From: Escherichia coli | Lineage (GTDB): Bacteria > Pseudomonadota > Gammaproteobacteria > Enterobacterales > Enterobacteriaceae | DNA: 64,000 bases | Reading direction: 5' to 3' (one strand) | Assembly (NCBI RefSeq): GCF_050920415.1 | Contig: NZ_CP169309.1 | Translations under genes and position numbers: made by a program | Shown here: piece after piece, positions 37,079-37,112 of the stretch | Numbering within the stretch: position 1 is the first letter of the stretch | Layout of the letters: every line of letters starts with the position of its first letter | The notes under the pieces: model-generated | What the model saw: the letters and a program-made list of their open reading frames with translations, nothing else | Databases searched by the model: none | Told to the model about the DNA's origin: nothing

Positions 37079-37112
37079 TGCTAAGGTTGAAGGGGCGTTC
37101 CAGCCCCTTCAA
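37079..37112 (-). terminator. Stem-loop immediately downstream of the yabP-like ORF
   Basis: aaggttgaaggggcgttccagccccttcaacctt, 12-13 bp stem; no clear U-tract. Confidence 0.4.

Follow-up and report, generated by a model that had tools for sequence, protein, structure and literature searches.

A putative terminator-derived hairpin at an insertion-sequence deletion junction beside Escherichia coli espY1, probably perfected by template switching

Introduction

In E. coli, the correction of imperfect inverted repeats to perfect ones by template switching has been documented (PMC7202029), and the same process has been put forward as the reason why perfect inverted repeats are conserved in strain MG1655 (PMC5941160). 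In such quasipalindrome events the flank of one arm is copied as its complement across the hairpin and unrelated sequence is replaced, as also appears to have happened at the locus described here. Laboratory quasipalindrome cases usually fix one or a few mismatches, whereas at this locus nine consecutive bases are apparently templated, the product is fixed in a natural population and the event is reconstructed from that product.

The hairpins that most resemble the one described here are the terminators of two espY paralogs, which share a homologous 8-bp GC-rich stem and a 6-nt loop; the C-termini are homologous as well, and the hairpins are equally spaced from the stop codon. In the paralogs the stems measure 7-11 bp and a T-run is retained on the gene strand, whereas in the present copy insertion sequence (IS) DNA replaces the T-run and a 17-bp stem reaches the stop codon. 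The IS DNA belongs to the IS4/Tn5 family and its closest reference is an ISEc13 copy of 1560 bp with Tn5-like ends (locus L002, 2937-4496), which is flanked by a 9-bp target duplication, CTGTAAGAC, and ends at the right in the inverted repeat CTGTCTCTTGATCAGATCT. The left and right ends of this copy, CTGTCTCTTATACACAAGT and CTGTCTCTTGATCAGATCT, presumably match the Tn5 outside and inside ends, respectively. The transposase gene of the same copy contains an internal stop. REP/BIME 3' hairpins are likewise stable elements without a U-tract that lie in a convergent spacer and plausibly protect against 3'-exonucleases, and they occupy the same spacer in strains that lack espY1 at this site; the present hairpin differs from them in having no sequence similarity to REP/BIME, in being single-copy and in its origin. 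The best reading of the palindrome, to which a rough probability of 0.65 is given, is that an ancestral espY-family terminator hairpin was remodelled by two DNA events and altered in function.

Results

Genomic setting

The window, the whole 64-kb stretch of E. coli chromosome that was analysed, contains in order rapA, rluA (plus strand), a spacer, a gene for a 253-residue pentapeptide-repeat protein (minus strand), djlA (minus strand) and lptD (plus strand). The convergent upstream gene rluA extends over 36052..36711 on the plus strand, while the pentapeptide-repeat gene, at 37120..37881 on the minus strand, carries the RefSeq name espY1 (T3SS effector EspY1); its K-12 counterpart is a pseudogene, divided into yabP and yabQ. 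Towards the 3' end of espY1, tandem repeats of 15 bp and 30 bp encode pentapeptide repeats (37153-37222 and 37248-37315).

The spacer between rluA and djlA is dimorphic. An island of 1.46 kb, comprising an IS remnant and espY1, occupies it in approximately 2080 of 5426 complete E. coli genomes, while in the remaining genomes the spacer consists of 116-149 bp of REP/BIME sequence. Both spacer forms switch within a few bases of the rluA and djlA stop codons (36712-38175 in the window against 713-828 and 713-861 in the compared loci L011 and L012, respectively). Strain H139 has an additional IS621 at this locus. A hairpin followed by a T-run, located at 36762..36783 on the plus strand, serves as the predicted rluA terminator; it is situated immediately within the left end of the IS, 15 nt into the remnant's left inverted repeat, and has a counterpart in ISEc13. 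Thus, in island-bearing strains rluA appears to be terminated by IS-derived sequence, while in island-less strains REP/BIME elements follow rluA instead.

Structure of the palindrome

The full palindrome, which has no assigned strand, spans 37080..37119 and comprises two 17-nt arms (37080-37096 and 37103-37119) separated by the 6-nt loop GTTCCA (37097-37102). The arms form a perfect 17-bp stem with 10 G-C pairs, the first base of which lies directly after the espY1 stop codon, as the right arm ends at 37119 and the TAA occupies 37120-37122. The corresponding position in MG1655 is 59280-59319. An initial annotation of this DNA had described a 34-nt hairpin at 37079..37112 with a stem of 12-13 bp, located just past the stop of a yabP-like gene and separate from the rluA terminator. 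The 34-mer is indeed present, although its true site is 37083..37116, 4 nt rightward, and the stem had been underestimated, since GCT/AGC pairs extend it on each side to 17 perfect base pairs. Its placement was correct: the hairpin adjoins the TAA of the minus-strand open reading frame 37120..37881, and the rluA terminator is a distinct structure, at 36762..36783 plus its T-run.

The palindrome is the longest perfect local inverted repeat anywhere in the 64-kb window, and its 40-mer occurs once in the window against a chance expectation of 0. In an 81-nt context, the predicted folding energies are -40.4 kcal/mol for the minus-strand RNA (z = -6.9) and -38.8 kcal/mol for the plus-strand RNA (z = -7.5), and none of 200 shuffled sequences folded as well as the hairpin context.

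The left flank and left arm derive from an IS

The sequence at 36747..37101 (plus strand) is the remnant of an ISEc13-like element of the IS4/Tn5 family that corresponds to IS positions 1-335 of ~1560 (blastn, 79% identity to the ISEc13 copy over 36748-37101; annotated in RefSeq as a transposase DNA-binding pseudogene). It opens with a left terminal inverted repeat, CTGCCTCTTGTACATAAAT (36747..36765, plus strand), identical at 15 of 19 positions to CTGTCTCTTATACACAAGT of ISEc13, and includes a frameshifted N-terminal fragment of the transposase, the Tnp_DNA_bind region, at 36925..37103 (plus strand), recognised by translation and from a RefSeq pseudogene in an identical genome; on the ISEc13 counterpart, Pfam PF14706 covers residues 8-65. 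The remnant is collinear with the intact element, sharing with it, in the same order and orientation, a Tn5-like left inverted repeat, a subterminal hairpin and the DNA-binding N-terminal region of the transposase. It differs in that only 335 of ~1560 bp are left, at 79% identity to ISEc13, with a broken frame, no right end, no target-site duplication and no intact DDE transposase. Sequence beyond IS position 335 is absent from the entire window. An insertion of espY1 into the IS was considered and rejected, as no IS sequence lies past espY1 or elsewhere in the window.

The outer left arm of the palindrome, GCTAAGGTT (37080..37088, plus strand), is native transposase-gene sequence. At this place ISEc13 has GCTCAGGTT, encoding T-A-Q-V, and the left arm matches ISEc13 at 16 of 17 positions, coding for the conserved T-A-K/Q-V-E-G-A-F/Y of the Tn5-type DNA-binding domain. 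IS homology spans the left arm and most of the loop before ending at 37101, the place where ISEc13 reads ACTGCTCAGGTTGAAGGTGCGTACC up to the junction and GCCTGATACG beyond it, together encoding T-A-Q-V-E-G-A-Y-R-L. In approximately 990 other ISEc13-like copies in E. coli the match extends only as far as the left arm and loop; none of them has the right arm. The possibility that the palindrome is native to the IS was discarded, the intact and other ISEc13 copies reading GCGTACCGCCTGATACGTAACC after the left arm.

One genome carries a modified remnant. In strain Z1323CEC0014 (NZ_CP148426.1; L143), ISEc13-type sequence has replaced positions 36930-37083 of the remnant, introducing ~20 differences, one of them a 4-nt deletion, and the transposase fragment is no longer annotated as frameshifted. 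The conversion tract ends in the left arm of the hairpin, where an A to C change at 37083 breaks one stem pair.

A perfect palindrome adjoining IS sequence could be a recognition element at the DNA level, namely a hairpin substrate for a transposase or recombinase, a REP-like repeat or a palindromic operator for a dimeric regulator. IS4-family transposases act via DNA hairpin intermediates, which lends this idea some general plausibility. However, the hairpin is found in one copy per genome and no other ISEc13 copy has it, its location within the IS is internal (335 bp in) and not terminal, it is dissimilar to the REP/BIME sequences that fill the spacer of island-less strains, and no intact transposase or regulator gene is associated with it. 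Such a role is therefore considered highly improbable. Two specific variants were rejected: an origin as a transposase hairpin intermediate or in a P-nucleotide-like manner, in view of the location 335 bp inside the IS and the asymmetric 6-nt loop, and a dispersed repeat or REP, in view of the single copy per genome, with no second one in the window, and the lack of likeness to the REP of the empty site. An Rfam scan of 36000-38500 with E values up to 10 gave no match overlapping 37080-37119; this and the single-copy status left a distinct structured-RNA family unsupported, and support was likewise lacking for the protein-binding element suggested initially.

The core of the hairpin is homologous to espY-family terminators

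The inner part of the palindrome, GAAGGGGC-GTTCCA-GCCCCTTC (37089..37110, minus strand), forms an 8-bp stem and is homologous to the hairpins that follow two espY paralogs. The core matches the two paralog types at 20-21 of 22 positions, and BLAST alignments to the paralogs cover 37089-37145 of the window with E values of 5e-6 to 7e-7. The first paralog, found through a BLAST match in a strain without espY1, is a pentapeptide gene between sgrR and thiB (L004), where the gene strand after the C-terminus ..QLLIEPE* reads GAAATAGG-GAAGGGGC-AGGAAC-GCCCTTTC-TTTTTTAAG; its hairpin and U-tract (L004 2498-2525, gene strand) are called as a terminator by the terminator scan. The second is espY2 of strains O157 and 042, also at the sgrR-thiB site, whose hairpin AAAGAAGGGGC-ATTCCA-GCCCCTCTTT (~1505-1524 in L013/L014, gene strand) is called as well. 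Both paralog loci display the pattern GAA(A/G)GGGC-(G/A)TTCC(T/A)-GCCCCT at the equivalent place after the homologous C-terminus (QLL..PE*), with TTTTTT or CTTTAATCTT coming after the hairpin. Where the arm of one paralog differs, the gene-sense RNA has a G-U pair and the other strand an A-C mismatch. The homology of the core to these paralog terminators suggests that the inner 8-bp stem and loop were inherited from the terminator of the espY family. The present strain has neither espY2 nor another pentapeptide paralog between sgrR and thiB (window 20941-21093); in other E. coli strains the site holds either espY2 or the other paralog type (208 genomes), and each of the two has a distinct version of the terminator hairpin.

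The junction and the outer right arm

The homologies to the IS and to the espY terminators overlap by 13 nt, GAAGGGGCGTTCC (37089..37101, no assigned strand), as IS homology ends at 37101 and paralog homology starts at 37089. The counterparts of this overlap are GAAGGTGCGTACC in ISEc13 and GAAAGGGCGTTCC and GAAGGGGCATTCC in the paralogs. The overlap is likely to represent the microhomology junction of a deletion, although the 13 nt are judged against ISEc13, which is 79% identical to the remnant and may differ from the parent IS. To the right of the core, the outer right arm AACCTTAGC (37111..37119, no assigned strand) is the exact reverse complement of the IS-derived left flank: all nine bases are complementary to the IS-native GCTAAGGTT, for which the chance expectation is ~4e-6, and the segment is unlike CCTATTTC, the paralog spacer that it replaces. 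The outer right arm matches ISEc13 positions 330-314 on the opposite strand, and ISEc13 itself has no palindrome at the aligned position. From these sequence relationships we infer that the outer right arm is a templated copy, produced by template-switch extension of the palindrome.

The origin part of the reading, which we hold to be quite probable, would thus involve the following events. An ISEc13/Tn5-like IS would have resided downstream of the espY1 terminator in plus orientation, with its transposase gene pointing towards espY1. A deletion between the 13-nt direct microhomologies, GAAGG-GCGT-CC in the transposase gene and, in the terminator, the distal arm together with the loop, would then have removed IS positions 336-1560 (~1.2 kb) together with the T-tract of the terminator, fusing transposase-gene sequence directly to an 8-bp hairpin. 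Once folded, this hairpin may have primed an intramolecular template switch in which the 9 nt before the espY1 stop were overwritten by the complement of the flank, so that a stem of 8 pairs would have become one of 17 perfect pairs reaching the stop codon. The initial annotation had missed two points, which on this evidence would be that the spacer is an IS remnant and that the length of the stem results from a secondary palindromic extension.

The 5426 E. coli genomes, the GTDB species representatives and 134 fetched loci including metagenome matches yielded no progenitor or intermediate allele: a full IS beside a T-tract terminator was not seen in them, and an IS-flanked hairpin of 8 bp was likewise absent, so that the order and number of events are deduced from paralogs and not from an orthologous ancestor. 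The pattern used to retrieve unextended or intermediate alleles from metagenomes, GCCCCTTCB-N(4-11)-TTATTCTGG, was unspecific, giving at least 120 matches, and among the matches listed and the other fetched loci (134 screened) only L004 and L117, the latter a second copy of the sgrR-thiB paralog terminator, were recovered, with no intermediate.

Distribution and conservation

A 48-nt hairpin query matched 2058 of the 5426 complete E. coli genomes at exactly one place each, 2014 of them with 100% identity. The stem is therefore kept within E. coli, which answers the initial annotation's call for its conservation in other genomes. A scan of GTDB species genomes with EspY1 peptides returned a single locus, an E. 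coli contaminant, and no other species. The locus in question is a 1646-bp contig of a Collinsella metagenome-assembled genome (JAIJJM010000692.1; L010) that corresponds to E. coli djlA-espY1-rluA with an identical hairpin, a binning contaminant in the GTDB representatives.

Sequence variation was assessed in 15 lineages picked for divergence in the adjacent coding repeat region, with strain Z1323CEC0014 as a sixteenth outside the counts. Segregating positions numbered 0 of 34 in the stem, 28 of 333 in the IS remnant and 20 of 96 in the 3' end of espY1. By one-sided Fisher tests the invariance of the stem is borderline, with p = 0.06 against the IS remnant and p = 0.02 against both flanks. Of the two variants in the hairpin region, one turns the loop GTTCCA into GTCCCA and the other adds a C where arm and loop meet; the invariant stems offer no covariation for analysis. 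The repeat stretch of espY1 is only 75-96% alignable between strains because copy number changes, while the adjoining hairpin is invariant. Conservation of the stem is thus real, yet weakly informative on selection, and could reflect recent common ancestry or self-correction of the palindrome.

These data bear on the view that the hairpin is a neutral scar of illegitimate recombination and template switching, its uniformity arising from a single recent origin and spread of the island together with palindrome self-correction. All copies reside in the same island and 98% of them are identical, the conservation statistics are weak, the mismatch introduced by gene conversion in strain Z1323CEC0014 has no obvious consequence, and the neighbouring gene in K-12 is itself a pseudogene (yabP/yabQ). 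Against this, segregating sites make up 8-21% of the flanks and none of the 34 stem positions, while the loop varies, and a hairpin of about -35 kcal/mol between convergent genes would form in any transcript that crosses it. On balance, a purely neutral scar seems unlikely, and the remodelled espY-family terminator with altered function is retained as the preferred reading.

Termination and RNA function

Efficient intrinsic termination and transcript release in E. coli require a U-rich tract. On the minus strand, that of espY1, the hairpin is followed by the tail AGTAGCGTGGGA, which contains no U-run, and the terminator scan makes no call. On the plus strand, the T-rich tail TTATTCTGG (37120..37128, identified by the permissive scan) is the complement of the last espY1 codons and begins with an interrupted tract, TTATTCTG, with 5 T in 8, which the permissive scan calls. 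Rough terminator scores d were -30 for the minus strand, +16 for the plus strand and +12 for the T-tract paralog; an approximate d'Aubenton-Carafa-type formula was combined with ViennaRNA energies, so these numbers serve only for orientation. The initial annotation had described the hairpin as having no U-tract on either strand, which is true of the minus strand (tail AGTAGCGTGG) and only in part of the plus strand. Its suggestion of a terminator for the minus-strand gene agrees with the ancestry revealed by the paralog hairpins, but the present tail is IS-derived and without a U-tract, and the only scan call is on the plus strand. Judged by sequence, the hairpin clearly appears homologous to an intrinsic terminator yet lacks the gene-strand U-tract by which one is recognised.

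External transcript data are available for the region. In O157 Sakai, RNA-seq and Ribo-seq provided RNA and ribosome footprints for a candidate small open reading frame, XECs005, which the authors' classifier placed in the class 'pseudo' (PMC5597208). The XECs005 peptide, MRCGAGRELPNGKRSHTQQLKAVWQKQKIPGLGDLCTRGSP, maps to the minus strand at ~36743-36865, antisense to the IS left end and the rluA terminator, implying that espY1-sense RNA exists 220-370 nt past the hairpin in Sakai. This downstream RNA is compatible with read-through from espY1, and it could also originate from a promoter of its own. In a transcript-stability study, only four mRNAs are listed as losing stability when poly(A) polymerase I is deleted, and yabQ is among them (PMC11708017); the yabQ transcript (minus strand, equivalent to 37120-37280 of the window) would carry the hairpin at its 3' end. 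No 3'-end entry for yabQ, yabP or espY1, or for the K-12 or Sakai coordinates, was found in the searchable supplements of Adams 2021, TERMITe 2025 and the 3'-UTR valves and Stx sRNA papers.

An alternative interpretation would be that Rho-independent termination of espY1/yabQ still takes place at the hairpin on the minus strand, the long GC-rich stem offsetting the missing U-tract. Its descent from a family terminator, its position adjoining the stop codon, the high predicted stability of the stem (-33 to -40 kcal/mol) and the invariance of the stem in the sampled lineages agree with this interpretation. It is opposed by the tail AGTAGCGTGGGA with no U-run, the absence of a minus-strand call and the d of -30, by the established need for a U-rich tract for efficient release, and by the presence of espY1-sense RNA downstream in O157 Sakai (PMC5597208). 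A working minus-strand terminator is accordingly regarded as unlikely, and intrinsic termination at the hairpin is probably inefficient, given the lack of a U-tract on the espY1 strand.

The functional part of the preferred reading is that the remodelled hairpin acts as a leaky barrier or 3'-end protector on the minus strand and as a back-up terminator on the plus strand, which we put forward tentatively and at somewhat less than even odds. On the espY1 strand it might act as a pause site, a partial barrier and a block to 3'-exonucleases that defines or stabilises the 3' end of the espY1/yabQ mRNA, while any transcript reading through would cross the IS remnant in the antisense direction, heading for the hairpin at 36762-36783. 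TTATTCT directly follows the extended stem on the plus strand, where the hairpin might form a back-up terminator that keeps rluA or IS read-through from entering espY1 in antisense. A bolder and rather doubtful extension, for which we would offer only long odds, is that the 9-bp extension became fixed because it rescued 3'-end formation after loss of the U-tract, a 'terminator repair' by a single template switch, and that it also provides an antisense shield. Were this true, an extra-long hairpin would end or stabilise an effector mRNA without a U-tract, and espY1 read-through transcripts would carry ~335 nt antisense to the 5' end of ISEc13-type transposase mRNAs.

Discussion

We would class this element as a hairpin that derives from a terminator, sits at an IS-deletion junction and was probably made perfect by template switching. 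This reading would account for a conspicuous unannotated palindrome at MG1655 59280-59319, beside the EHEC effector gene espY1, and would identify the whole rluA-espY1 spacer, including the rluA terminator hairpin, as a dead Tn5-like IS. Our understanding of terminators and insertion sequences is left unchanged, so that the value of the finding lies in annotation and in a textbook-style case; it would acquire more weight only if the extended stem terminates or stabilises RNA without a U-tract. As such a case, the espY1 locus would offer a natural example of how a microhomology deletion can decapitate a terminator, how an existing hairpin can grow into a long perfect palindrome through a template switch, and how the polarity of a terminator can flip between strands.
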